Of a stretch of 57,089 nt of DNA, positions 12,350-50,883 are shown in pieces. This DNA is from an uncultured bacterium (GTDB lineage: Bacteria > Patescibacteriota > Minisyncoccia > Phycocordibacterales > CAIRYW01): assembly GCA_903882905.1 (NCBI GenBank), contig CAIRYW010000004.1, positions 115,117-172,205 on the forward strand, in the 5' to 3' direction. The translations under genes and the position numbers were made by a program. Under the pieces are notes generated by a model that did not search any database, was not told the origin of the DNA, and was given only the letters and a program-made list of their open reading frames with translations. Within the stretch, counting starts at the first letter, position 1; each line of letters begins with the position of its first letter.

Positions 12350-12460
12350 TTTTAATTTTTATTTATTTATTAAAATTATATTATCACGGTTCGAGAGCAT
12401 GACGAAATTATTTTGATTTTTTCTCAAAAAAAAGCTACAGTTATGAAGTTTTAAATACAT

Positions 12461-12531
12461 TGCGGGATCGTCTAATGGTAGGACTGCGGCTTTTGGAGCC
12501 GCGTATATTGTTTCGAGTCCAAGTCCCGCAG
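12461..12531 (+). tRNA. tRNA-Gln (anticodon TTG), T-stem imperfect
   Basis: Hand-folded. Acceptor tgcggga/tcccgca, D-arm gtct-aatggta-ggac, anticodon arm gcggc-ttTTGga-gccgc, T-loop ttcgagt. The T-stem attgt/ccaag has only 3 Watson-Crick pairs (53-61 is T-C), so it may be partly decayed. Confidence 0.6.
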
Positions 12532-12720
12532 TTTTTGAACGCAGTGAAAAACTGCGGGAAAGAAGCAAATAATTTTGCTTCTTTCATGGACTCGAAGCCC
12601 GATTGAGATAATTTATGAGGGACGAAATAAATTATCCAATTGCGGGTATTGAAGCTGTAAGCTTCGAGATTCCAAGTCCAGTATGAAAATTTTTAGTCGA
12701 GGAAGAGACTCCAAGTCCTA
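12525..12720 (+). repeat. tRNA-Gln 3' hairpin plus variant tRNA-linked element with T-arm-complementary and T-arm-like segments
   Basis: Hairpin cccgcagttttt/aaaaactgcggg starts inside the acceptor 3' strand. ggactcgaa (rc of T-loop ttcgagtcc) lies at 12588-12596. An 18-bp hairpin spans 12598-12646. Partial tRNA 3' copies are cttcgagattccaagtcc (12662-12679) and gactccaagtcc (12707-12718). Confidence 0.45.
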
Positions 12721-12798: not shown

Positions 12799-14736
12799 TC
12801 AGATTACACCCGCTTTTTGCAGCCTTGCTGCGAGCTTGACCATGACTCCGACGCTTCCGCCGTTTCGGATCTGTTCCTTCTGATGATCGGAGAGTTCGAA
12901 TTTCCAACCACAATCCTCACCGGCCCACTTCACTGCACCGTTTTCCCAGTCGATATTGACCGACCGCAGTTTCGAAGCAAAGAGGACGTTGATATGATTT
13001 TTTGGCATAACCACACAGAGCAGGCCGTTCGCGAACATGCTGTTGTAGAAGATGCGAGCAAAACTCGGTGCGATGACGCACCGAATGCCCGCGCCCTCAA
13101 GCGCCCAAGGCGCGTGTTCGCGTGAAGAGCCTGTGCCGAAGTTTTCTCCCGCCACTAGAATTTGGGAGCTGAAGAGCTTCGGTTTATCCTCCGGCGAAAC
13201 CGAAGAATCTTCCAAGCAGTGCTTACCGAACTCCGACTTCCTGGTCTCGTTCAGATACTTGGCTGGAATGATTTGGTCAGTGTCCACATTGGCATCTGGC
13301 AGGTAAAAAACGCTGCCTGAAAAATCCTTCACCTCGCCAACACTAAAAAGATGAAGAAGATTGCTGTAGTCAGGTTTTTGCGAAGGGATATCCTTCCAGT
13401 CACTACCGCAGGTTTGACCCCACGACGACACGCCGCCGATTTCATCAGCAACGTCCTTGCAAAGGCTGACTGATGGTTCCGATACCACTCCGTTGATCGC
13501 GGTATAGGCCGCAGTCGCAGGAGACACCAAATGAACCATACCGCTTTCGCCCATGCGTCCCGGGAAGTTTCGGTTTGTCGTCGAAACGCAAACCTCCCCC
13601 GGAGCGATGACACCGCAACTCATCCCAAGACAGGCCCCGCAATTCGGACCACTCACGAAACACCCCGCCTTGACGAAGGTTTCGAGGAGTCCTCTTTTGA
13701 GAGCCATCTCGTAGATATGCTGGGTAGCTGGAACAACAATGCAGCGGACACCGTCCGCAACCTTGCCGCCCTTCAGACGAAATACTGCTTCCGCGATGCG
13801 CAAATCTTCCAACCGGCCGTTTGTGCACGAACCGATGTAAACCTGATCGACGGGCTTTCCCGCCATTTTCGAAACAGGAACAACATCGCCCGGAGAATAG
13901 TTGTCAGTGATGACCGGAACCATTTCCGAAACGTCGATCTCGACCACCTGGTCATAAACCGCGCCTTCATCACTGTTCCAACGTTTCCAGTCGATGTTTT
14001 GATTCGGGGACAAGGATTTCATGTAATTGATCGTGGTTTGATCCACCATCATCATCCCCGACGTTGCACCTGCCTCGACTGCCATGTTGCTGATTGGCAT
14101 CCGAGCTTCCATGCTCATACCTTCGATGACTGAGCCACCGAATTCGAGCACTGCGTTGGCGGCACCTTTCACGCCGATTCTGTTGATCAAGGTGAGGATG
14201 AGGTCCTTCGAATAAACGTTTGCCGGCAGGGTGCCAACGAAATTTACGCGAATGACTTTTTGGGGAGGACAAATCCAAAGCCCGGTAATGATACCGTTCT
14301 CGAGGTCTGTTGTGCCAACCCCTGCCGCCAGAGCGCAGAAAGCGCCGTGTGTGCAAGTATGACTGTCTCCCATAATTCCCACCTCACCTGGACGAATCCA
14401 GCCCTTTTCTGGAATGATCGCATGGCAAATTCCGTTGCGTCCGACGTCGAGGAACTCGATTCCGTGTTTCTTACTCCAGTCACGGATGATTTTTCCTTGA
14501 ACCGCCGATGCCGTGTCTTTGGCCGGGTTGACATGATCGATCATGGCTTTGATTTTGTTAGGATCGAAAACTACGTCGACCCCGCGACCTTGTGCGTCGA
14601 GAATTGCGTTGGGAGTGGTGATTTCGTGGCACCAAACCCTGTCCAATCCGAGAACCACACCGCCGTCCGGCATGACCATTTTGCAATGGCTGTCGAGAAT
14701 TTTCTGAAACGCTGTTTTTGGATTTTTTTCTTTCAT
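12799..14736 (-). CDS. Aconitase-family dehydratase, fused LeuC-like large plus LeuD-like small subunit (3-isopropylmalate/homoaconitate dehydratase-like)
   Basis: 645 aa. GDSHTCTHGAF, GSCTNGRLEDL and STTNRNFPGRMG (Fe-S ligand regions), then the swivel domain GENFGTGSSREHAPWAL. The DNA is conspicuously GC-rich relative to the rest of the window. Confidence 0.85.
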   Translation of the reverse strand: MKEKNPKTAFQKILDSHCKMVMPDGGVVLGLDRVWCHEITTPNAILDAQGRGVDVVFDPNKIKAMIDHVNPAKDTASAVQGKIIRDWSKKHGIEFLDVGRNGICHAIIPEKGWIRPGEVGIMGDSHTCTHGAFCALAAGVGTTDLENGIITGLWICPPQKVIRVNFVGTLPANVYSKDLILTLINRIGVKGAANAVLEFGGSVIEGMSMEARMPISNMAVEAGATSGMMMVDQTTINYMKSLSPNQNIDWKRWNSDEGAVYDQVVEIDVSEMVPVITDNYSPGDVVPVSKMAGKPVDQVYIGSCTNGRLEDLRIAEAVFRLKGGKVADGVRCIVVPATQHIYEMALKRGLLETFVKAGCFVSGPNCGACLGMSCGVIAPGEVCVSTTNRNFPGRMGESGMVHLVSPATAAYTAINGVVSEPSVSLCKDVADEIGGVSSWGQTCGSDWKDIPSQKPDYSNLLHLFSVGEVKDFSGSVFYLPDANVDTDQIIPAKYLNETRKSEFGKHCLEDSSVSPEDKPKLFSSQILVAGENFGTGSSREHAPWALEGAGIRCVIAPSFARIFYNSMFANGLLCVVMPKNHINVLFASKLRSVNIDWENGAVKWAGEDCGWKFELSDHQKEQIRNGGSVGVMVKLAARLQKAGVI

Positions 14737-25135: not shown

Positions 25136-26014
25136 ATGTTAGAAAATTACCCAATAAAACAGATTGTTGTTAAAGAATGTTTTCCTGCACTTGCAGAAAT
25201 TCCTTCTCCACCTAAAAGACTTTTCATAAGAGGAAATTTGCCTCTGAAAGATTTTATCCTGCTTACCGTAGTCGGTTCAAGAAAAATCAGTCCTTACGGT
25301 AAAGAAGCAATTAGAAAAATTATTTCCGGTTTGAAAGGATACCCAATAATAATAGTCTCTGGTTTAGCGCTCGGAGTTGACAGCGTTGCTCATGAGGAAG
25401 CCTTAAGCACAGGAATTCCAACAATTGCTATTCCTGGCTCCGGCTTAGATGAATCGGTCATTTACCCGAGAACACATTTAAATTTAGCAAAAAGAATAAT
25501 AGAGGCAGGAGGGTGTCTTCTATCTGAATTTGATCCAAATGAAAAAGCTGCAATTTGGACTTTTCCAAAGCGAAACAGAATCATGGCTGGGATCTCAAAA
25601 GCTACATTAGTAATAGAAGCGGAAAAACCTTCTGGCACTTTAATTACATCAAAACTTGCTACAGATTTTGGAAGAGATGTTTTTGCCGTACCTGGTTCAA
25701 TTTTTTCAAAAAACTCAGAAGGTCCACACATGTTGATAAAACTCGGAGCAACACCAATTGAAAATAGCGAAGACGTTTTGGAAGCGCTTGGTTTTGATAT
25801 TTCAAAAAAAGATAACCTGCCTGCCGGCAGGCAGGTTCTACTCGAACTATCTGATGAAGAAAAAACACTTCTCGCGATTTTGGCTACGCCAAAATCGCGA
25901 GATGAAATTATCTGCGAATTAAATTGGGAAATTTCTAAAGTTTCAGAAATTTTAACTCTACTTGAAATCAAAGGTTTAATAAGGGAAAGTGTTGGGAAAA
26001 TATTTTTAGTTTGA
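25136..26014 (+). CDS. dprA: DNA-processing protein DprA/Smf
   Basis: 292 aa. VVGSRKISPYG, SGLALGVDSVAHEEAL, and a C-terminal winged-helix-like tail. Confidence 0.88.
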   Translation: MLENYPIKQIVVKECFPALAEIPSPPKRLFIRGNLPLKDFILLTVVGSRKISPYGKEAIRKIISGLKGYPIIIVSGLALGVDSVAHEEALSTGIPTIAIPGSGLDESVIYPRTHLNLAKRIIEAGGCLLSEFDPNEKAAIWTFPKRNRIMAGISKATLVIEAEKPSGTLITSKLATDFGRDVFAVPGSIFSKNSEGPHMLIKLGATPIENSEDVLEALGFDISKKDNLPAGRQVLLELSDEEKTLLAILATPKSRDEIICELNWEISKVSEILTLLEIKGLIRESVGKIFLV

Positions 26015-26049
26015 AAATTTAATCTTTCATTATATTATCTAGTCCGAAC

Positions 26050-26442
26050 ATGAACACCACAAACAACTCTCCGACGTTGGAACAACATCTCCTGGAAAGA
26101 ATGGAATTGCTGCACAAGAAAGCTGAAGTTCCAAAACCAGGCGAATTAACCCTTGATCCAAGCATCAGAAGCGTTCGCTTGGATAAAACTGACATCAAGC
26201 GTAATTTTCCTGAATACAACCTTACAAAAAGAATGATTCAGGGATTGGTTCGGGAATTCTTCGGGCCATTCAAGTGTGAAGTTGAATTCACTCCTGGAGA
26301 AATCCAGGTAACAAACGTCAAGATCACCAAAACGGACGAGGAAAATTTCCCTGTAGCGCTCGGGGAGATAACTTTGATCCGGTTCACATTCCTTTACATG
26401 GTCATTCGACCAAGAACCAAAGGTCTGATATTGTCTCGCTGA
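26050..26442 (+). CDS. Hypothetical 130-aa protein, GC-elevated orphan
   Basis: The ORF is followed by a clean terminator. Its composition is visibly richer in G+C than dprA/topA. No motif recognised. Confidence 0.5.
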   Translation: MNTTNNSPTLEQHLLERMELLHKKAEVPKPGELTLDPSIRSVRLDKTDIKRNFPEYNLTKRMIQGLVREFFGPFKCEVEFTPGEIQVTNVKITKTDEENFPVALGEITLIRFTFLYMVIRPRTKGLILSR

Positions 26443-26455
26443 CAATTCTTTCCTA

Positions 26456-26482
26456 ACCGGTAATCGTATACCGGTGTTTTTT
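26456..26482 (+). terminator. Rho-independent terminator
   Basis: accggta-atcgta-taccggt followed by gtttttt. Confidence 0.7.
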
Positions 26483-26598
26483 ATATTATTTACTATAAAT
26501 TTTCATAATTTATTTATTAACCTATTGAAATTGTTTTTAAGATTTTTTTGTTTGTAAATTTGCAAAAAAAACTATTTTAGTTTTTACTTACGCTATAT

Positions 26599-28878
26599 AT
26601 GAAATTAGTAATAGTAGAATCACCAGCAAAAGCAAAGACTATTGGTAAATACCTAGGAAAAGATTTTGAGGTAAAAGCCTCAGTCGGACACGTAAGGGAT
26701 TTACCTAAATCAAATAAAAAAGCCATCGATATCGAAGGTGGGTATATTCCTCATTACGAAATATCTATCGGTAAAGAACACGTCATTGATGAAATAAAAA
26801 AACTGGCAAAAAAAGCTGACGAAGTCTTACTTGCAACTGACCCAGACCGTGAAGGAGAAGCTATCGCTTGGCATATTTCAGAATTAATTTCAGATAAAAA
26901 AAGTGCAAAACCAATTAAAAGAATTTCATATACTGAGATCACTAAAGAAGCCATAACTGAAGCTTTAAATAATCCTAGAGAAATCGACCAAGATTTAAGA
27001 AAAGCTCAGGAGGCAAGACGTGTTTTAGACCGTCTTGTTGGATACGACCTTTCTGGAATTATTTGGAAAAAAGTTAGATACGGACTTTCTGCAGGCCGAG
27101 TTCAATCCCCTGCGCTAAGAATAATAATGGAACGTGAAAGAGAAATTCGCGCTTTTAAACCTGAAGAATATTTTGTAATCGGCGGAGAATTTAATACACA
27201 AACCAATGACACTATATTATTAGAATGTGAAAAAAAACCAAAGGACAGAACTGAATCTGAAAAAATTGTTGAATTAGGAAATAAAGAAAAGTGGCACGTT
27301 AAGAGTATTGAAAAAACCGAAGTAAAAAGATCTGCGCGTGCACCTTTTATTACTTCAACTCTCCAGCAAACAGCCTCCACTCGGCTTGGATTTTCTCCAT
27401 CAAACACGATGCGTATTGCCCAAAAACTTTACGAGGGTGGATTCATCACATACATGAGAACAGATAGTCCAAACCTAAGTACATATGCAATAGAACACAT
27501 TGCTGAAAAAATCAAAAAATCTTATGGGGAAAAATATTTAGATTCCAAAAACTTTGCCTCAAAATCAAAGAGTGCTCAAGAAGCTCACGAAGCAATTCGT
27601 CCATCAGATATTTTCAAAGAAAACGCTGGTGCAAACGATGATGAGAAAAAACTTTACAGATTGATCTGGCAAAGAACTATTGCAAGCCAAATGTCTCCTG
27701 CGCTAACTGAGAGAACAAAAATTTCTGCAAATGTTGAATCTGATTCAATTCCAGATTTTTCTATTACTGGCTCAATAATTATTTTTGATGGATGGTTAAA
27801 GGCTGATCCAGAGGGTGCGGGTGAAGATAGAATTTTACCTAAAGTAAAAGAAAAGGATCCACTCAAATTAATTAAACTTAATATGGATGAAAAATGGACA
27901 GAACCGCCTGGAAGATATTCAGAGGCCGGACTCATTAAGGAGCTTGAAAAAAGAGGTATCGGACGCCCTTCTACCTACGCTTCTATAATAAGGACACTTG
28001 AGACCAGGGAATACGTTATAAAGGAAAATAAGGCCCTTAAGCCAACAGATACTGGGGATGTGGTATCAACCTTCCTCGAGGCTAATTTTGCAGACTATAT
28101 AAGTGATGGCTTCACAGCTGAGATGGAAGAAAAGCTAGATGAAATTGCAGAAGGAAAAGCAGAATATGCAAAAACTCTCGAGCATTATTATGTTCCTTTG
28201 CATAAAGAAGTTATCGAAAAAGAAAAATTAGATAAAGCTACAACTTTTGGCGAAGCAGATCCAAAACATAAATGTCCAAAGTGTGGCAGTTCAATGTTAG
28301 TAAAACTTTCACGAGGTGGAAAATTTTTAAGCTGTTCAAGATATCCTGATTGTGATGGCGCCCTTTCTGTTGATGGTTTAGAAATAAAAAAAGATGAACC
28401 AATTGGACTACACCCTGACACAGGTTTACCGATTTTTGTAAAAACAGGAAGATTTGGACCATATGTTCAACACGGAGAAATGGCTCCAAAGAAAGTTAAA
28501 AGTCCTAAGTTGAAAGTTCCAAAGGCAAAGAAAACCAAGGAGGAAAAGGAGCAGGCTAAACTTGAAACTGAAAACTTAAAACTTAAAACTATTCAGAAGC
28601 CACGTATGGCCTCAATACCAAAAGAGCACGATCCTTCAAATGTTACATTACAAGATGCTCTTAAATTTCTTTCAATCCCAAAAGTGTTAGGAAAACATCC
28701 AACAACTGGACTAGATGTAGTTGCAAACAACGGACGCTTTGGACCTTATGTATCTCATGATGGAAATTTCAGATCAATTAAGGCACCATTAAATGTTTTT
28801 GATATTACATTTGATGAAGCTCTCGCTCTTTTGGCACAAGAAAAGAAGCCAAGAGGTTTTCAGAAAAAGAAGAAATAA
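26599..28878 (+). CDS. topA: DNA topoisomerase I
   Basis: 759 aa. TOPRIM MKLVIVESPAKAKTI, active-site region GFITYMRTDS, one C4 zinc ribbon (CPKCGS...CSRYPDC), basic tail. Confidence 0.95.
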   Translation: MKLVIVESPAKAKTIGKYLGKDFEVKASVGHVRDLPKSNKKAIDIEGGYIPHYEISIGKEHVIDEIKKLAKKADEVLLATDPDREGEAIAWHISELISDKKSAKPIKRISYTEITKEAITEALNNPREIDQDLRKAQEARRVLDRLVGYDLSGIIWKKVRYGLSAGRVQSPALRIIMEREREIRAFKPEEYFVIGGEFNTQTNDTILLECEKKPKDRTESEKIVELGNKEKWHVKSIEKTEVKRSARAPFITSTLQQTASTRLGFSPSNTMRIAQKLYEGGFITYMRTDSPNLSTYAIEHIAEKIKKSYGEKYLDSKNFASKSKSAQEAHEAIRPSDIFKENAGANDDEKKLYRLIWQRTIASQMSPALTERTKISANVESDSIPDFSITGSIIIFDGWLKADPEGAGEDRILPKVKEKDPLKLIKLNMDEKWTEPPGRYSEAGLIKELEKRGIGRPSTYASIIRTLETREYVIKENKALKPTDTGDVVSTFLEANFADYISDGFTAEMEEKLDEIAEGKAEYAKTLEHYYVPLHKEVIEKEKLDKATTFGEADPKHKCPKCGSSMLVKLSRGGKFLSCSRYPDCDGALSVDGLEIKKDEPIGLHPDTGLPIFVKTGRFGPYVQHGEMAPKKVKSPKLKVPKAKKTKEEKEQAKLETENLKLKTIQKPRMASIPKEHDPSNVTLQDALKFLSIPKVLGKHPTTGLDVVANNGRFGPYVSHDGNFRSIKAPLNVFDITFDEALALLAQEKKPRGFQKKKK

Positions 28879-29957: not shown

Positions 29958-30044
29958 GCCCAGGTGGCGGAATTGGTAGACGCAATAGACTCAAAATCTA
30001 TCGATCGCAAGGTCATGGGAGTTCGATTCTCCCCTTGGGCACCA
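29958..30044 (+). tRNA. tRNA-Leu (anticodon CAA), CCA encoded
   Basis: Hand-folded. Acceptor gcccagg/cttgggc, anticodon arm ataga-ctCAAaa-tctat, long variable arm, T-arm gggag-ttcgatt-ctccc, ending ACCA. Confidence 0.9.
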
Positions 30045-30180
30045 TAATAAAAAGCTGGTATATTAATACCAGCTTTTTATTATGGTTTCGGGAGAATCGA
30101 AAGACGGAGCACGACTGGCGCGAGTCGGGGTCGCAGAAATTTTCAGCAGAAAATTATCTGTGACCGATTCCCTCCTGGAC
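30041..30180 (+). ncRNA. tRNA-3'-linked structured element, A-type (hairpin + three-way-junction domain)
   Basis: Hairpin 30041-30086. Then gggagaatcgaa / core AGACGGAGCACGACTGGCGCGAGTCGGGGTCGCAG / AT hairpin / CTGTGAC / cgattccc(tcctggac). The core is shared with 3 other copies, with compensatory changes. Confidence 0.5.
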
Positions 30181-32080: not shown

Positions 32081-32166
32081 GCGCCGATCGCATAGTGGCA
32101 ATTGCAGCGGGCTGTAAACTCGCCGACCTATGGTCTACGGGGGTTCGAGTCCCTCTCGGCGCACCA
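32081..32166 (+). tRNA. tRNA-Tyr (anticodon GTA), long variable arm, CCA encoded
   Basis: Acceptor gcgccga/tcggcgc, anticodon arm gcggg-ctGTAaa-ctcgc, T-arm ggggg-ttcgagt-ccctc, ACCA. Confidence 0.88.
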
Positions 32167-32342
32167 ATAAAAAATACCGGATTCAGTCCGGTATTTTTTA
32201 TTGCCTGTGCTGTTCGAGAGGGACACGAAAGCCGGAGTGCGACGGCGCGAGGCGGGATCGCGAGATTTTTCAACAGAAAAATACTTGTGACCGAGTCCCT
32301 TAAAAAGGTACTGACCCTGTAAGGGTCGAGATTCCATCTCAG
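32165..32342 (+). ncRNA. tRNA-3'-linked structured element, A-type + B-type domains
   Basis: Hairpin 32165-32203. cgagagggacacgaa (rc of the tRNA-Tyr T-arm). A core AGCCGGAGTGCGACGGCGCGAGGCGGGATCGCGAG...CTTGTGAC-cgagtccct. B part cctt-aaa-aagg GTACTGA ccc-tgtaa-ggg tcgagattccatctc. Confidence 0.5.
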
Positions 32343-39946: not shown

Positions 39947-40030
39947 GCCCGAGTGATGAAATTGGTATACATAGAGGACTTAAAATTCTCAGGCCTAAAG
40001 GCCGTGTGGGTTCGACTCCCACCTCGGGCA
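39947..40030 (+). tRNA. tRNA-Leu (anticodon TAA)
   Basis: Acceptor gcccgag/ctcgggc, anticodon arm gagga-ctTAAaa-ttctc, long variable arm, T-arm gtggg-ttcgact-cccac. No encoded CCA (ACCC). Confidence 0.88.
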
Positions 40031-40208
40031 CCCATATTAAAAGCCGTCTTTAAAGACGGCTTTTAATATGGGTTGTGGGAGTCGAAGGTCGGAGCGCGTC
40101 GGCGCGAGACGGGGTCGCGCAAAATTTTAGCAAAAATTTATGCGTGACCGATTCCCTTTTACAAAATATCCAAAAGGTGTACTGATCCTGTAAGGGTCGA
40201 GTTCCCAC
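40031..40208 (+). ncRNA. tRNA-3'-linked structured element, A-type + B-type domains
   Basis: Hairpin 40031-40072. gtgggagtcgaa (exact rc of the tRNA T-loop + 3' T-stem). A core GGTCGGAGCGCGTCGGCGCGAGACGGGGTCGCGC...GCGTGAC-cgattccc. B part cctttt...aaaagg TGTACTGA tcc-tgtaa-ggg tcgagttcccac. Confidence 0.5.
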
Positions 40209-40240
40209 CTGTAATTTGATATAATTAACAAATCAAAATT

Positions 40241-44479: not shown

Positions 44480-44552
44480 CCACCCATAGCTCAGTCGGTA
44501 GAGCAGCTCCCTTTTAAGGAGAGGGTCGTAGGTTCGATTCCTACTGGGTGGA
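44480..44552 (+). tRNA. tRNA-Lys (anticodon TTT)
   Basis: Acceptor ccaccca/tgggtgg, D-arm gctc-agtcggta-gagc, anticodon loop ctTTTaa, T-arm gtagg-ttcgatt-cctac. No encoded CCA. Confidence 0.85.
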
Positions 44553-44588
44553 CAATTTAACAGCGAAGCTGGTAAATTATCCGCCCAA

Positions 44589-44724
44589 GCAAGTGCTACT
44601 AGCACTTGCGAGTAGGAATCGAACGCCTCCGCTATATTTTTTCAGCAGAAAAAATAGCGAGGCGCGTTTTGAGAAATTTTTTTGACGAAAAAAAATTTCT
44701 CAAAAAGATACTCCTACTGGGTTG
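44589..44724 (+). ncRNA. tRNA-3'-linked structured element, variant (after tRNA-Lys)
   Basis: Hairpin gcaagtgct/agcacttgc. gtaggaatcgaac (exact rc of the tRNA-Lys T-arm). Hairpin gcctccgctatatttttt-cagcag-aaaaaatagcgaggc. Hairpin ttttgagaaattttttt-gacg-aaaaaaaatttctcaaaa. Then ctcctactgggt (copy of the tRNA 3' end). Confidence 0.45.
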
Positions 44725-44761: not shown

Positions 44762-44843
44762 GGGCGAGTGGCGGAATTGGTATACGCGCTAGTCTTAGGA
44801 ACTAGTTCCGAAAGGATTGGGGGTTCGAGTCCCCCCTCGCCCA
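44762..44843 (+). tRNA. tRNA-Leu (anticodon TAG)
   Basis: Acceptor gggcgag/ctcgccc, anticodon arm ctagt-ctTAGga-actag, variable arm, T-arm ggggg-ttcgagt-ccccc. No encoded CCA. Confidence 0.88.
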
Positions 44844-45013
44844 CATTTAAAAAAAACGCTTTTGAGCGTTTTTTTTGTGGTCGAGAGAAACTGCCGGGTG
44901 GCAGTTTCGTGGGGAACTCGAAAACCTTTTGAGATTTTTCTAAAAGAAAATCCAAAAGGTGTACTGACCCTGTAGGGGTCGAGATTCCCCCTTCACCTGT
45001 GAACATCGTGAAC
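44841..45013 (+). ncRNA. tRNA-3'-linked structured element, B-type with leader hairpin
   Basis: Hairpin 44841-44880. Leader hairpin gaaactgcc-gggt-ggcagtttc. ggggaactcgaa / ccttttg...caaaagg / TGTACTGA / ccc-tgta-ggg / tcgagattccccc. Tail cacctgtgaacatcgtgaac. Confidence 0.5.
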
Positions 45014-46220: not shown

Positions 46221-46311
46221 TCAGTATGTATAGCTCTTCAATAGCCTTTTTGATTTAATCTCCCTCATTTACAATTCAACACCTCCAACTCCCCTATACT
46301 TATTTTCACAT

Positions 46312-46540
46312 CATCAGCATACCTAACTAGTTCTGAAAGCCAGCCCATCTGTCCACATTAAAAAAACACCCTCTGGGTGTTTTTTGTTGGGCGGGGAGAA
46401 ACTGCTGGATGGCAGTTTCGCGGGGGACTCGAAAACCTTTTGAGATTATTTTGTGAGTTAGCGAAACAAAATATCCAAAAGGTGTACTGCTCCTGTAAGG
46501 AGAGAGATTTTCCTCTCGCCCACCTGTGAACGTTGTGAAT
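46312..46540 (+). ncRNA. Decayed tRNA-Leu-like 3' remnant (R1) + hairpin + B-type structured element
   Basis: R1 shares aactagttcYgaaag and gYccaca with tRNA-Leu(TAG). Hairpin 46353-46390. Leader hairpin gaaactgc/gcagtttc. gggggactcgaa (exact rc of the tRNA-Leu(TAG) T-arm). ccttttg...caaaagg, TGTACTG, ctcc-tgtaa-ggag, then ttttcctctcgcccac and cacctgtgaacgttgtgaa. Confidence 0.5.
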
Positions 46541-46631
46541 GTTATTACGATATAACAGACTACTTGACTAGAAATAATTTTAGTGTTTATATTGAACCTG
46601 AACAATTTACCTCTTTGAAAGGTCTAATTTT

Positions 46632-46805
46632 ATGACACAACACATCGTAATTGGAATACTCCTTTGTTGGACTATTCTGGGTTTAATCATTGACCCTCTG
46701 TTGCTTGGCAGTTCCTGGATAACTTCTTCACGGACGCGCGAAGTTGCAGTGCTAATACTTGGAGGACCAGTAACTTGGTTCCTTGCATTTGCTCAATGGT
46801 TTTAA
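46632..46805 (+). CDS. Small membrane protein (57 aa)
   Basis: Below the ORF-track cutoff. My translation is MTQHIVIGILLCWTILGLIIDPLLLGSSWITSSRTREVAVLILGGPVTWFLAFAQWF, with two hydrophobic helices. gaaagg lies 12 nt upstream. Confidence 0.4.
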   Translation: MTQHIVIGILLCWTILGLIIDPLLLGSSWITSSRTREVAVLILGGPVTWFLAFAQWF

Positions 46806-46908
46806 AACAAGACAACTCTAAAGTTCGACCTCGTTGCTTACGCGATGAGGTCATTTTTATAACAGACAAGTTTTAATATTTTCTAAATCTTTTATACTAA
46901 TTCTTACC

Positions 46909-47167
46909 GCATCAGCATACCCAACAAGTTCTGAAAGCCAGCCCAACGGTCCACATTAAAAAAACACCCTCTGGGTGTTTTTTTTGTGAGCGAGGAGAAA
47001 GCTCTGGGAGAGCTTTCGTGGGGACTCGAAGGCCGGAGCGCGACGGCGCGAGGCGGGCGAGTAGCAACGAGTGTCGGAGTAGGCTTCGCAGAAATTTTTA
47101 CCACAAGGGTACTTCTGTTTTTTGTAAACAAAAACAAGTCGCGCAAAAAATTATCTGTGACCGAGTC
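46909..47167 (+). ncRNA. Decayed tRNA-Leu-like 3' remnant (R2) + hairpin + A-type structured element (expanded)
   Basis: R2 is about 90% identical to R1 over about 45 nt. Hairpin 46951-46988. Leader hairpin gaaagctc/gagctttc (compensated relative to the other copies). ggggactcgaa + GGCCGGAGCGCGACGGCGCGAGGCGGG core with extra internal hairpins, ending CTGTGAC-cgagtc. Confidence 0.5.
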
Positions 47168-48370: not shown

Positions 48371-48682
48371 CTAATTTCCAATTACGGTCTGAACAGCTTG
48401 TTCGGTCTTTTGGTCTGCATTCAAACCAAATGAATTAACAATTATCTTCATGATCGTAAAAGTCGAAATCATTATCATCATTCCAACAAATCCCCAAAGC
48501 ATATGCATAGTTCCTTTTGCTCTTACCTCTTGATCATCAGCATGGACAATATAGTCTTTAACTCCCCAAAGAAAACCAACCAAAGCAAAAGCGAACATCA
48601 AAATAATCAAAGGATTAACAATCAAAGCATTCGCTTTAAGAATGATTGAATCGAAAGATACAGCCGATGCAAGTTGATCCAT
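48371..48682 (-). CDS. VirB2/TrbC-like (T4SS-pilin-like) two-TM mini-protein, paralogue 7
   Basis: 103 aa. Core FALVGFLWGVKDYIVHADDQEVRAKGTMHMLWGFVGMMIMI has the same helix / charged loop / helix pattern as the six ORFs upstream. Confidence 0.5.
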   Translation of the reverse strand: MDQLASAVSFDSIILKANALIVNPLIILMFAFALVGFLWGVKDYIVHADDQEVRAKGTMHMLWGFVGMMIMISTFTIMKIIVNSFGLNADQKTEQAVQTVIGN

Positions 48683-48700
48683 TTTTGAGTTTTCGAGAGA

Positions 48701-49045
48701 TTAAATTGTTGGTCCGTGAACCGGTGATGTAACGTCTGTTCCGTTGAAGAATGTTGTATTGAGAATTCTTACAAAACCCCAAACAGCTGTCATAACAAAG
48801 ATGATGATAATTCCGTAAATAATAATTCCTCTTGCAGCTGCTTTTTTCTCTTCATCTGCACCTGCTGTAACATACTGAACCAAACCCCAAAGAAATACCA
48901 AAACAGCAATACCGATAACAAGTGGGATTATTGAGTTGATAAGATCTCTAATTGATAGAATCGCATTCTGTGCATTGTTAAAATTTTGTGCAAATGCAAG
49001 TAATGGACCCAATACGACAACACCTGAAATTAATACTTTTTTCAT
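48701..49045 (-). CDS. VirB2/TrbC-like two-TM mini-protein, paralogue 6
   Basis: 114 aa. Signal peptide, then VLVFLWGLVQYVTAGADEEKKAAARGIIIYGIIIIFVMTAVWG. Confidence 0.55.
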   Translation of the reverse strand: MKKVLISGVVVLGPLLAFAQNFNNAQNAILSIRDLINSIIPLVIGIAVLVFLWGLVQYVTAGADEEKKAAARGIIIYGIIIIFVMTAVWGFVRILNTTFFNGTDVTSPVHGPTI

Positions 49046-49235
49046 TTTTATAATTTTGCGAAATTATGTCGCGCAATCGTCTTTATGACGCGACGCTTAT
49101 TTTAATAATTAAATTGACCTTATTAATTTGTTTGTCCCTGACAAACCCTTTAATTTACTTAAATTGTAGCACAAACCCATCTTAAAAGTGCAAGATAAAA
49201 GTGGAAAACATAACCAAACAAAATCCACACAGGTA

Positions 49236-49622
49236 TTATTGGAATACGTTTGCACAAGAACTTGTGTTAATAGGGTTTGTACCCGAGCTTTTGAATTGAG
49301 GAATACCAAAACTTACATTAAAAGTCGAAGTAAAAATTCTTAATACTCCCCAAATTCCAACAATAACGAAAAAACCGATCATTCCGTAAATCATAAATTT
49401 GGTACCCTCACTTCTTTTTTCTTCATTATCTCCAGCAGAAACATACTTTATAAGTCCTCTAAGAAATTCTACAAAAGCAATCAATATTATTATAGGGACA
49501 AGATCTAGGGCTAGACAAATAATAATATTTACTAAACCAGCAAAACTTGTTGGCGCTGTTAATGCAAAAGCAAAAACTGGTGGTGTTAGTGTTAAAACAA
49601 AAATATAAATGAATTTTTTCAT
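49236..49622 (-). CDS. VirB2/TrbC-like two-TM mini-protein, paralogue 5
   Basis: 128 aa. Signal peptide, then FVEFLRGLIKYVSAGDNEEKRSEGTKFMIYGMIGFFVIVGIWG. Confidence 0.55.
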   Translation of the reverse strand: MKKFIYIFVLTLTPPVFAFALTAPTSFAGLVNIIICLALDLVPIIILIAFVEFLRGLIKYVSAGDNEEKRSEGTKFMIYGMIGFFVIVGIWGVLRIFTSTFNVSFGIPQFKSSGTNPINTSSCANVFQ

Positions 49623-49630
49623 CGTTTTGT

Positions 49631-50014
49631 TTAATTTGGTGTAATTGTTGTTGGTAATTGAGTTGGCAAGTAAACAGCTCCATCAAAAAAAGAACTGTAC
49701 AAAAGTTTTACAATCCCCCAAACACTTATCATTACAAAAAGTACAATAATTCCAAAAATCATTACGTTCCTGCCAGATAATCTCGCTTCTTCATTGTCAC
49801 CTGCTCCAACAAATCTCACAACTCCAATTAAAAATATAACTAATGCAATAGATATAAGAAAAGGAACATATGACTGCATTTTAAATTGAATGTAGCAACT
49901 AAGTAGAGTATGCAGATCACTTGGAGTTGTACTGCAATCATTTGTTGCCGCAAAAACTGGCACAGAAACAAACCATAGACTAGTCGACAATAAAATATTT
50001 AATATTTTTTTCAT
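49631..50014 (-). CDS. VirB2/TrbC-like two-TM mini-protein, paralogue 4
   Basis: 127 aa. Signal peptide, then VIFLIGVVRFVGAGDNEEARLSGRNVMIFGIIVLFVMISVWG. Confidence 0.55.
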   Translation of the reverse strand: MKKILNILLSTSLWFVSVPVFAATNDCSTTPSDLHTLLSCYIQFKMQSYVPFLISIALVIFLIGVVRFVGAGDNEEARLSGRNVMIFGIIVLFVMISVWGIVKLLYSSFFDGAVYLPTQLPTTITPN

Positions 50015-50016
50015 TT

Positions 50017-50475
50017 TTATGGATTTGTTGTTGCAGATGGAGGTAATGATGGCATTGTGTAATCAAATCCAAAGGTCGTACTAAGTATTTTTACGATTCC
50101 CCAAACCGAAACCATCACGAAAATTGCAATTATTCCATATATCATCATATTTCTACTTGCTTCTCTTTGTTCTTCATTATCACCAGAAGAAACATATTGA
50201 ACAACTCCAATTAGAAACAATAAAACTCCAAGCCCGATAACAAACGGAATTATACTGCTGCTGATGACACATCTTGCGTAATCAAAAAGTTTAGGGATGT
50301 CTTTTGGTGCAATACAGGTTGTTGCTGCGTTTGATGATGAAGTGCCAGCATTAGCACCAACTACCGCTCCAGTTACTGCTCCGTCGGCCTTTGCCAGATT
50401 AGGGAAATAAAGGCAAACTACAAAAGACAAAACTATAAATAAAGGAATTATTTTTTTGACTTTTATTTTTGACAT
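50017..50475 (-). CDS. VirB2/TrbC-like two-TM mini-protein, paralogue 3
   Basis: 152 aa. Signal peptide, then LLFLIGVVQYVSSGDNEEQREASRNMMIYGIIAIFVMVSVWG. Confidence 0.55.
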   Translation of the reverse strand: MSKIKVKKIIPLFIVLSFVVCLYFPNLAKADGAVTGAVVGANAGTSSSNAATTCIAPKDIPKLFDYARCVISSSIIPFVIGLGVLLFLIGVVQYVSSGDNEEQREASRNMMIYGIIAIFVMVSVWGIVKILSTTFGFDYTMPSLPPSATTNP

Positions 50476-50508
50476 TTTTTTTAAAAATATTAAATTTACA
50501 AATAAATT

Positions 50509-50883
50509 TTAACTAATAACTCCCCCGACTGTATTTACAACTGCTGTAATTATAACTTGCGCACCAATGAGCACTGCTGTTCCAACCAAAGCCCAAGTAA
50601 CAGTTGTTTTAGCTTTCTTGAGCTTTTCTTCATCTCCTTGAGCGGTTGCATAAAGATATCCTCCATACATTATTGAAAGTGCTCCAACAATTGCACCAAT
50701 TTCAGTAGCGGCAGTAATTATTGATTTCAGAAATTCTGGAATACTATTTGCACTTACAGGATTTTGCAGACCATTTGTTGAACCTATTGCTTGTCCGGTA
50801 ATTCCACCAAAAACAACCACAGCAATAACGAAAAATGTTACAACAAAAAAATAATTTTTACTCTTCTTTAATATGTTTTTCAT
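50509..50883 (-). CDS. VirB2/TrbC-like two-TM mini-protein, paralogue 2 (divergent)
   Basis: 124 aa. SIMYGGYLYATAQGDEEKLKKAKTTVTWALVGTAVLIG. Overlaps the next ORF by 4 nt. Confidence 0.5.
   Translation of the reverse strand: MKNILKKSKNYFFVVTFFVIAVVVFGGITGQAIGSTNGLQNPVSANSIPEFLKSIITAATEIGAIVGALSIMYGGYLYATAQGDEEKLKKAKTTVTWALVGTAVLIGAQVIITAVVNTVGGVIS

Follow-up and report, generated by a model that had tools for sequence, protein, structure and literature searches.

Islands that insert into tRNA and transfer-messenger RNA (tmRNA) genes by means of tyrosine integrases split the gene and carry a replacement for the part cut off, leaving a regenerated gene and the displaced fragment as a direct repeat (PMC4383910). 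Their crossovers cluster at the T-loop and the anticodon loop, with the T/acceptor junction as a third subsite, they accrete in tandem, and the displaced fragments are 3' or, more rarely, 5' ones (PMC4383910). In CTXphi, the stem of the recombining hairpin is built from attP1 and attP2; one pair of strands is exchanged with the chromosomal site, and replication completes the reaction (PMC3442271). Here, we compare with these systems a series of small units found in a stretch of 57,089 nucleotides from a patescibacterial genome (contig CAIRYW010000004.1, positions 115,117 to 172,205; the whole stretch is termed the window). ARAGORN detected eight tRNA genes in the window, and the order X, hairpin, X', cargo, X'' is found after six of them, where X is the 3' part of the tRNA gene itself, X' its reverse complement, and X'' a direct copy. 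We propose that these units probably belong to a family of nonautonomous, gene-less miniature integrative cassettes in Patescibacteria, in which a hairpin mimics the target of the element.

The window has a GC content of ~35% and a high coding density, and the closest match to its MiaA protein (64% identical) is in Nomurabacteria- and Paceibacteria-type genomes. Our comparison covers more than 130 loci of other Patescibacteria; the stretches from these genomes are designated by L numbers (L002, L200, etc.).

Anatomy of the tRNA-Tyr locus

The locus is composed of the following features.

32081-32166, + strand: tRNA-Tyr(GTA) with encoded CCA (ARAGORN; Rfam tRNA score of 52.5 bits)
32144-32166, + strand: X, ttcgagtccctctcggcgcacca, from T54 to CCA, the end of the tRNA; probably of element origin, judging from the lepA and rplL cases described below
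32166-32202, + strand: apical part of hairpin H1, a palindrome of A-tract, GC stem, and T-tract, fully paired in RNA and DNA folds
32215-32229, + strand: X', cgagagggacAcgaa, the 3' strand of H1, reverse complement of X 1-15 (tRNA positions 54-68) in 14 of 15 bases
32230-32291, + strand: core A, identified by its pattern (0 expected by chance) and by covariance model R1 (81.8 bits, E = 5e-18); it consists of an AGC linker, P2 (CGGAG..GCGCGAG), GG, and the long hairpin P3 (GGATCGC...GTGAC)
32292-32300, + strand: first X'', cgagtccct, a direct copy of tRNA positions 56-64 that abuts GTGAC
32301-32327, + strand: module-B remnant, aaaaaGGTACTGaccCTGTAAGggtc, recognized by the module-B motif; complete B units and stacks exist in other genomes
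32328-32340, + strand: second decayed copy of the tRNA end (X''), gagattccatctc, after the module-B remnant

P2 has tandem G.A-type flanks and a covarying 2-bp clamp, and the end of X' is separated from CGGAG by exactly 3 nt, a spacing common to at least 12 other loci. The palindrome of A-tract and T-tract looks like a bidirectional terminator, and the first X'' may be read as a decayed, displaced tRNA end. A contig of 519 nt (L199), found via an exact match to the L33 protein, is identical to the window at this locus, element included. A CCA is encoded by tRNA-Tyr (32164-32166) and tRNA-Leu(CAA) (30042-30044) and not by the other six tRNAs of the window; both encoded CCAs fall inside X, the segment that we infer to be element-borne.

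The original prediction, made from the DNA letters alone, described X' and X'' as the two strands of an outer helix and named the folding of whole tRNA-plus-trailer transcripts as one way to check this. When tRNA-Tyr was folded together with its trailer, X:X' was the best pairing (-129.5 kcal/mol, z = -9.6), and the tRNA fold was destroyed. The X:X' hairpin dominates the locus, and the unit from 32144 to 32291 folds as H1, P2, and P3 (z = -9.4). The proposed X':X'' helix is not favored: it is absent from the minimum-energy structure of the segment running from X' to X'', which reached z = -2.4 when folded alone. The palindrome of nearly 100 nt that had been described for the 3' third of the tRNA, the hairpin, and the downstream DNA does exist; formed with X', it spans 76 to 99 nt at the six loci.

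The units insert inside gene ends, which are regenerated

Comparison of orthologous loci, which had also been suggested as a check, uncovered sites without an element. In seven relatives (L122, L124, L127, L128, L129, L161, and L170), tRNA-Leu(CAA) is separated from the start codon of miaA by 3 to 24 nt, versus 167 nt in the window. The 167 nt consist of the hairpin, X', the core, and X'', and this whole block is missing from the seven relatives. Since the terminator-like hairpin is missing from the empty sites, it is part of the insert. A scan of metagenomes with the exact 3' half of tRNA-Leu(CAA) gave no matches, and an exact look-up of the MiaA protein for sister strains found none on record.

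We then turned to protein-coding targets. Module-B units are located at the 3' end of lepA in L200, L204, L207, L208, and L209. There, the present gene end and the downstream copy encode the same last three residues and the stop with synonymous codons; in L207, for example, the two ends read aaa tca gac taa and aag agt gac tag, each with its own complement (gtctgattt and gtcactct). Every lepA X has its own compensating X', which complements X only (L200, L207, and L208). The present end has an X' in L209, and the downstream copy has none; because no complement is found there, this copy is the native end. A hybrid is found downstream in L204, where the right part of the copy corresponds to another X', and the lepA region of L200 (5300-5900) contains three stacked ends in a row. 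Pairs of ends were also found with core A, at rplL in L014 (gtt acg ctc aag taa versus gta aca ctg aag taa, the latter with the original terminator behind it) and at an rplK-like gene in L112 (gtg aca taa versus gtg act tga). The protein-gene targets imply that X and X' travel with the core and that X'' is the displaced host end.

These comparisons show that the units insert inside gene ends, that the gene is regenerated, and that X and X' are borne by the element. The original prediction held that each element was custom-built from the T-arm of its own tRNA, and thus had the direction reversed: the present 3' third of the gene, X, and X' make up the inserted unit, and X'' is the old host end. 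The footprint of an integration event, which it had considered and discounted, is now backed by empty sites, a regenerated gene end, a displaced fragment, stacks, and a hybrid junction. In several Patescibacteria (L200, L204, L207, L208, L209, and L211), module-B units recur at the lepA 3' end, a hot spot at which the last codons are present in two or three successive copies, and LepA is the second commonest neighbor of core A (8 loci).

The units also accrete in tandem. The direct repeat can take in the whole hairpin (23 nt in L016, 57 nt in L125, and ~50 nt in L203), which is the product of a new unit stacking before an older one. Stacking likewise accounts for the two X'' remnants and the mixed A and B modules at the Tyr, Leu(TAA), and Gln loci. 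Tandem arrays of complete units (X'', spacer, X', and core), with a period of 116 to 260 nt, were observed in L070, L056, and L102 and are consistent with repeated integration or with unequal recombination between direct repeats.

Specificity and geometry of X' and X''

At all six loci of the window, X' is the reverse complement of the T-loop and 3' T-stem of the adjacent tRNA, as had been predicted. It is also tRNA-specific: in a cross matrix of ungapped scores, X' reached 9 to 13 with its own tRNA versus 5 to 9 with the others, shuffled downstream sequence giving a mean of ~5.5 and a maximum of 8 to 10. The X' of Leu(TAG) is the weakest, its own score of 9 being equaled by one off-diagonal cell. 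Over 33 T-loop-type loci in other genomes, tRNA positions 54-65 covary with X', with 84.8% pairing and 48 double-change cells versus 18.3 in shuffles (0 of 500 shuffles as high); for example, G/A at tRNA position 57 goes with C/U, and A/G/U at position 59 goes with U/C/A. Of 124 copies of core A, 56 have a tRNA on the same strand less than 200 nt upstream, and at these 56 loci, the mean match to own versus other tRNAs was 8.5 versus 5.3 for X' and 10.6 versus 5.0 for X''. The predicted tailoring of X' to each tRNA is thus confirmed and is general.

The claim that X'' is a decayed direct copy was confirmed by the homologs, whereas the signal in the window is weak (scores of 6 to 11), with the X'' of Leu(CAA) and that of Leu(TAG), each taken alone, within chance. 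Perfect copies of 19 to 21 nt are found in L024, L025, L027, L029, L040, L043, L044, L052, L087, L114, and L117; in homologs, the perfect copies run from C56 to 1 to 4 nt beyond the end of the tRNA and thus into genomic trailer, not CCA. The geometry is constant across loci: the 5' strand of H1 starts at T54, X' is followed by 3 nt and then by CGGAG, and GTGAC is followed, with 0 nt in between, by an X'' starting at C56. A long and perfect X' goes with a decayed X'' (in the window, L012, L037, L076, and L109), and a short X' goes with a perfect X''. This inverse relation in quality is, by all appearances, a pattern of age and not one of a maintained two-state device.

In L098, L115, and L017, X' and X'' match each other and not the tRNA just upstream, from which it follows that units can end beside a noncognate tRNA. 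L003 and L115 have in common an X'' from one and the same tRNA.

Conserved cores and their distribution

The core-A motif, CGGAG...GGCGCGAG..GGG.TCGC, occurs three times in the window versus 0.00 expected, and the module-B motif, CTGTARGGGTCGAG.TTCC, occurs four times versus 0.01 expected. Our alignment of 52 core-A sequences revealed three helices, with 97.7% of the cells paired and 12 covarying pairs; 0 of 500 shuffles reached the observed covariation. The helices comprise a 2-bp clamp (GC/GC, GA/TC, GT/AC, or AC/GT), a short GC hairpin with G-A/A-G flanks, and a 16-bp hairpin with 10 covarying pairs. An invariant G.U (52/52 sequences, + strand) establishes that it is the sense strand of the host gene that folds. 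Three core types were distinguished (A, B, and divergent forms), with a conserved module of ~65 nt within units of 120 to 250 nt.

The core-A pattern was found in at least 118 stretches of a species-level genome collection, nearly all from Saccharibacteria, Paceibacterota, and other Patescibacteria. The few matches outside Patescibacteria are GC-rich and score below 19 bits in the model, versus 75 to 88 bits for real copies; on these scores, core A is restricted to Patescibacteria. An unbiased 419-kb sample of patescibacterial DNA contained seven copies (~1 per 60 kb), five of them directly after a same-strand tRNA. The pattern was absent from 2.9 million viral contigs, apart from one GC-rich coding chance match. 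In Rfam 15, only the tRNAs of the window reach the gathering score, and nothing credible was found at E <= 10 or E <= 1 over two element regions.

The targets seen are more than 15 tRNA species, lepA, rplL, an rplK-like gene, a transketolase-like gene, and 5S rDNA. In L002, L034, and L059, core A is antisense inside partial copies of 5S rRNA, each beside an intact 5S gene, and the 5S insertion point has GGGTG in common with the 5' hairpin of the element. A short motif, GTGTACTCAC, is located between core A and X'' or at duplication junctions in L015, L022, L026, L076, and L125. It is a miniature of the module-B signature GGTGTACTG..CTGTAAG and may be the footprint of a lost B unit.

No gene is linked to the units. 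In agreement with the original prediction, which had noted a small cargo and no integrase, the insert measures 136 to 186 nt from the end of the tRNA to the last X'' and contains no open reading frame (ORF). Among ~47 large ORFs of the window, we detected no integrase, transposase, or reverse transcriptase domain, and the window contains no TnpA or TnpB. An all-against-all BLAST of 749 ORFs, from stretches of up to 8 kb around 112 elements, revealed no recurrent protein family near the elements and recovered only housekeeping families, e.g., LepA and RuvX-like proteins.

Proposed mechanism and comparison with known systems

On the sense strand of the host gene, a unit consists of X, a loop that often contains a terminator-like hairpin, X', a linker of 2 to 3 nt, and a structured core of type A, type B, or a divergent form. 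X is a copy of the 3' end of the host gene from the crossover on, which at tRNAs means from T54 or C56 to the end or, sometimes, the last few bases only. With insertion inside the gene end, the gene finishes in the X of the unit, and the former end comes to lie just past the core as X''; repeated insertion at one gene yields stacked units and several X'' remnants. In a unit closed as a circle, GTGAC would join X without an unpaired base, and H1, P2, and P3 would form a three-way junction with P3 stacked on H1. H1, in which a single strand recreates the target as a duplex, may serve as the attachment site. Integration would then be a recombination within X between the gene end and a free unit, probably circular and possibly single stranded, catalyzed by a factor acting in trans. 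Recombination within X would generate the order that we observed, namely, gene body, X, loop, X', core, X''.

The combination of one core with more than 15 tRNA species and several protein genes suggests that the target may be specified by the hairpin itself. In this reading, which we regard as doubtful, target choice would be programmed by nucleic acid and not by protein, the ~65-nt core (A or B) and a freely exchangeable hairpin together providing an attachment site for host structure-specific recombination. If this were true, the module would be retargetable to any gene end and would represent a new class of mobile DNA, a hairpin-guided cassette that may move as a small single-stranded circle, and, in principle, a programmable insertion system.

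Like islands in tRNA genes, the units leave a regenerated gene and a displaced fragment as a direct repeat and accrete in tandem. Most X'' start at C56, in the T-loop, and it is in the anticodon loop that the partial copies of L055, L057, L116, and L117 stop. A further class of X'' starts near position 72 (L045, L058, L066, and L110), outside the three published subsites (PMC4383910). Unlike islands, the units measure 120 to 250 nt and not kilobases, carry neither an integrase nor any other gene, and possess the inverted copy X'. In addition, a single core goes with more than 15 tRNA species as well as with lepA, rplL, and other genes; an attachment (att) site specified by a protein would not permit this.

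The resemblance to attP(+) of CTXphi and to attC of integrons lies in inverted segments that fold on one strand to rebuild a duplex, with X:X' covarying with the target. As with these folded att sites, the structure is strand specific, shows covariation and G.U/G.T pairs, and goes with the predicted order of gene, X, loop, X', core, and X''. In contrast to both systems, the units lack recognizable Xer/dif or IntI sites, a cargo ORF, and a phage genome. Their target is the gene end that the hairpin duplicates, whatever the gene, and a single-stranded state is a prediction. The R' and R'' sites of integron attC have the consensus GTTRRRY; reading the element loci of the window by eye against this consensus, we found no GTTRRRY/RYYYAAC pair flanking the units.

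Miniature inverted-repeat transposable elements (MITEs), Correia elements, repetitive extragenic palindromes and bacterial interspersed mosaic elements (REP/BIME), and palindrome-associated transposable elements (PATEs) are, like the units, small, gene-less, structured, multicopy, mostly intergenic, and presumably mobilized in trans. MITEs have terminal inverted repeats on either side and a short target-site duplication of fixed length, whereas in the units X/X' is one-sided and includes host gene sequence, the direct repeat consists of 5 to 57 nt of the host gene end, and the gene end that receives the insertion is repaired. A parent insertion sequence (IS) was not found. PATEs of the IS200/IS605 type have subterminal hairpins at both ends, insert 3' of a fixed tetra- or pentanucleotide without duplicating the target, and occur in genomes with TnpA/TnpB. 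The units, too, have hairpins at both ends (H1 and P3), but the direct repeats are long, and the left flanks (TAGAG, ACGGT, CTTAG, and CCAGG) have no common short motif. Finally, a conserved junction with a closing helix of variable sequence, as well as two partners for X' at tRNAs, is reminiscent of riboswitches and attenuators, whereas the second pairing is not conserved off tRNAs and the units are positioned 3' of genes, often behind a terminator.

Alternative explanations

In the original prediction, the three segments had the geometry of an alternative-pairing switch, X' being able to pair either with X or with X''. In an RNA switch of this kind, the first pairing would block the tRNA, the second would release it, and the core would be the sensor. 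This geometry is present at tRNAs; the RNA of tRNA-Tyr and its trailer prefers X:X', with loss of the tRNA fold; core A is aptamer-like, with a three-helix junction, ~30 near-invariant nucleotides, a variable closing helix, and a sense-strand G.U; and a perfect X'' is kept at many loci. We nevertheless consider a switch very unlikely. The X':X'' pairing is not conserved: at lepA, X' complements X alone and cannot pair with X'', the native end in L209 has no X', the Tyr minimum-energy fold lacks this helix (z = -2.4), and long X' coexist with decayed X'', so the two pairings are not co-maintained. Moreover, the terminator-like hairpin usually lies between the tRNA and X', and most transcripts would stop before reaching X'; elements are also found antisense to 5S rRNA (L002, L034, and L059), as orphans (46284-47167; L003, L046, and L106), and in stacks; and relatives manage without an element there, as at tRNA-Leu(CAA). 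The choice between X and X'' as partners of X' exists at tRNAs only because both copy one constrained sequence. It is also rather unlikely that the units are functional 3'-end RNA modules (stabilizers, processing signals, or small RNAs) that spread, as gene end plus module, by transformation and short-homology recombination. Such a role would suit the high expression of the hosts (tRNAs, lepA, rplL, and the rplK-like gene), the nearly constant sense orientation, the extreme conservation of the core with RNA-like covariation, and the absence of an element-linked enzyme, and the DprA encoded in the window is consistent with competence. Yet stacks of two to three units and orphan and nested copies suggest that units accumulate at an attachment site and not that a function was tuned, cotranscription of gene and core is disfavored at many loci by a terminator between them, direct repeats of 5 to 12 nt are too short for RecA-type recombination, and the distribution is patchy among close relatives. 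This explanation and the integrative cassettes are partly compatible, the difference being what is selected.

A regenerated tRNA with a displaced 3' fragment is the signature of islands (PMC4383910), and the strong deletion bias of small genomes could in principle have reduced integrase-borne islands or prophages to scars, a kilobase element in the T-loop losing its interior and leaving its two ends. We judge this highly improbable in view of more than 100 independent loci with the same compact architecture, constant single-nucleotide spacing, and no long interior; there is no integrase remnant in stretches of up to 8 kb around the elements, a search of 2.9 million viral contigs for the core pattern gave a single chance match, and the inverted copy X' has no role in a double-stranded attP. 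An intron-like or retroelement origin, by reverse splicing into RNA loops or from a 5'-truncated class C group II intron placed after a terminator and copied to DNA, appears extremely improbable: there is no Rfam intron or ribozyme match even at E <= 10, the 65 to 110 nt in question are far below the size of any self-splicing intron, X'' runs 1 to 4 nt past the tRNA end with genomic sequence and not CCA, so it is DNA derived, copies are found antisense in 5S rRNA, and no reverse transcriptase is nearby. What speaks for it are the insertions in D-, anticodon-, and T-loop regions of tRNA copies (L013, L035, L038, L055, L116, and L117) and H-type ends that read GUGAG...AC. Class C group II introns are positioned just after terminator hairpins, and the location of the elements after such hairpins recalls them.

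Several other candidates were tried and rejected. Hammerhead, twister, and hepatitis delta virus (HDV)-type ribozymes gave no model match and their cleavage-site rules are not obeyed, a remnant of group II intron domains V/VI had no match and would have the wrong size, and the splice points of an archaeal bulge-helix-bulge intron would fall inside a helix. A TnpB/IscB guide RNA would target the cell's own intact tRNA gene, a retro-copy of a mature tRNA disagrees with an X'' that continues into genomic trailer bases and not CCA, and a simple target duplication from a staggered cut fails to explain partial copies with an embedded element. A tRNA mimic of the tmRNA or Y-RNA type and a DNA uptake sequence were considered and dropped.

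A number of observations weigh against the integrative cassettes that we favor. Mobility is deduced from sequence: neither an excised form nor a presence/absence difference among strains was seen, the only near-identical contig (L199) also carries the element, and no recombinase was found. The comparison sequences are metagenome-assembled genomes throughout; an assembly artifact is argued against by the same single-nucleotide geometry in more than 100 independent assemblies and by the identical independent contig L199. One core serving many targets is unlike protein-specified integrases, and ~30 near-invariant core nucleotides across distant lineages, together with the G.U, the tandem G.A, and the sense orientation, could mean a cellular RNA function. 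In the Ser-tRNA set, a perfect X'' of 19 to 21 nt stands beside an old, imperfect X', and an X'' that persists in perfect form may be under selection. Elements with a fixed 5' hairpin (H1/H2 types, 'GGTGAGaagcGAATACttGGAGCttCGCAAGG' and 'TGAGcttggg..cccaagCGCAAG') are found inside partial gene copies beside an intact copy, in D-loop/T-loop fragments of tRNAs (L013, L038, L055, L057, L116, and L117) and in 5S rDNA (L034). Our proposal can accommodate them only on the condition that free units take along pieces of the flanking gene and use these for integration. The pseudo T-stem enclosing the element in L055 has compensatory changes (GAAGG/CCTTC versus GTAAG/CTTAC in the real tRNA), which implies that this outer helix is itself under selection.

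Significance of the units

That elements repair their target gene is a known principle; the gene-less form with a hairpin copy is apparently undescribed. We found no published description of such elements in the full-text literature or in Rfam, an absence of evidence that concerns those resources only. If our proposal is true, the last ~20 bases of six of the eight tRNA genes of the window come from inserted cassettes, as do the ends of many tRNA, lepA, and ribosomal-protein genes across Patescibacteria. The units would form a widespread family of the smallest known integrative elements, devoid of genes, with a conserved structured core and a site of attachment in which the target is copied as a hairpin. 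A large share of the "structured" and GC-rich DNA between genes in these AT-rich genomes is accounted for by the units, which can mislead the annotation of tRNA ends, terminators, and noncoding RNA. They raise the question of what host activity would join a folded hairpin to a gene end by recombination and of whether the hairpin alone sets the target.

Other units and neighboring genes in the window

The other units of the window are as follows.

12512-12718, + strand: Gln(TTG) module-B stack, with X at 12512-12531, X'a at 12552-12559, an arm at 12562-12581, X'b at 12587-12596, core B at 12597-12665, X'' at 12666-12679, and a second X'' at 12697-12718
30022-30180, + strand: Leu(CAA) unit, with X at 30022-30044, the hairpin at 30044-30083, X' at 30090-30101, core A at 30102-30164, and X'' at 30165-30180
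40011-40210, + strand: Leu(TAA) stack, with X at 40011-40032, the hairpin at 40033-40070, X' at 40075-40086, core A at 40087-40148 (R1, 88.3 bits), X'' at 40149-40156, half a B unit at 40157-40198, and a second X'' at 40199-40210
44533-44722, + strand: Lys(TTT) unit, with X at 44533-44552, X'a at 44580-44589, an extra arm at 44589-44609, X'b at 44610-44623, and X'' at 44711-44722
44624-44710, + strand: cargo of the Lys(TTT) unit, divergent and A-like, with two long hairpins and a weak R1 match (15.9 bits at 44654-44704)
44824-44997, + strand: Leu(TAG) module-B unit, with X at 44824-44844, the hairpin at 44845-44878, X'a at 44877-44885, an arm at 44887-44908, X'b at 44909-44922, core B at 44923-44980, and X'' at 44981-44997
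46284-46523, + strand: orphan module-B unit without an intact upstream tRNA, preceded by a 102-nt repeat that resembles a degenerate tRNA 3' end (..gtccac)
46882-47167, + strand: orphan core-A unit (R1, 38.2 bits) with the same 102-nt leader repeat and a P3 split by a nested insertion of ~80 nt

The Leu(TAG) module-B unit has a paralogous copy at 46358-46520, and an interrupted fourth core A was detected by the covariance model at 47029-47089; with the nested insertion in its P3, this core extends over 47029-47167. The two copies of the 102-nt direct repeat (46284-46385 and 46882-46983), one ahead of each orphan element, are 86% identical. At its end, the repeat has '..agttctgaaagccagccca..gtccac' and a terminator, in the manner of a tRNA 3' end that has degenerated.

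ARAGORN labeled 44480-44553 as "tRNA-Stop" with anticodon tta. Its anticodon loop reads c-t-TTT-a-a, with U33 and A37 in place, and the Rfam score is 69.9 bits; this gene is an ordinary tRNA-Lys(UUU) and no suppressor. The tRNA-Gln(TTG) gene (12460-12532) has a defective T-stem (attgt versus ccaag), with three pairs only and T instead of G at position 53, and its Rfam score (44.4 bits) is the lowest among the eight tRNAs of the window, whereas the Gln tRNA of L210 has a normal cttgg/ccaag stem. The tRNA-Gln(TTG) could be a chimera of a host 5' part and an element-borne 3' part. An aconitase-family gene (12799-14736, - strand) lies directly past the tRNA-Gln stack, and the GC content between positions 12 and 16 kb of the window is 0.41 to 0.47, versus a background of 0.33 to 0.36. 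This GC-rich aconitase block may have been acquired horizontally; the DNA past it contained no further fragment of tRNA-Gln.

Five small genes in a row (48371-50883, - strand) match a type IV secretion system (T4SS) pilin family (PF18895). Lastly, the region 25136-28878 encodes DprA, a competence-related recombination mediator, upstream of topoisomerase I; both proteins act on single-stranded DNA and are possible host factors for the elements.

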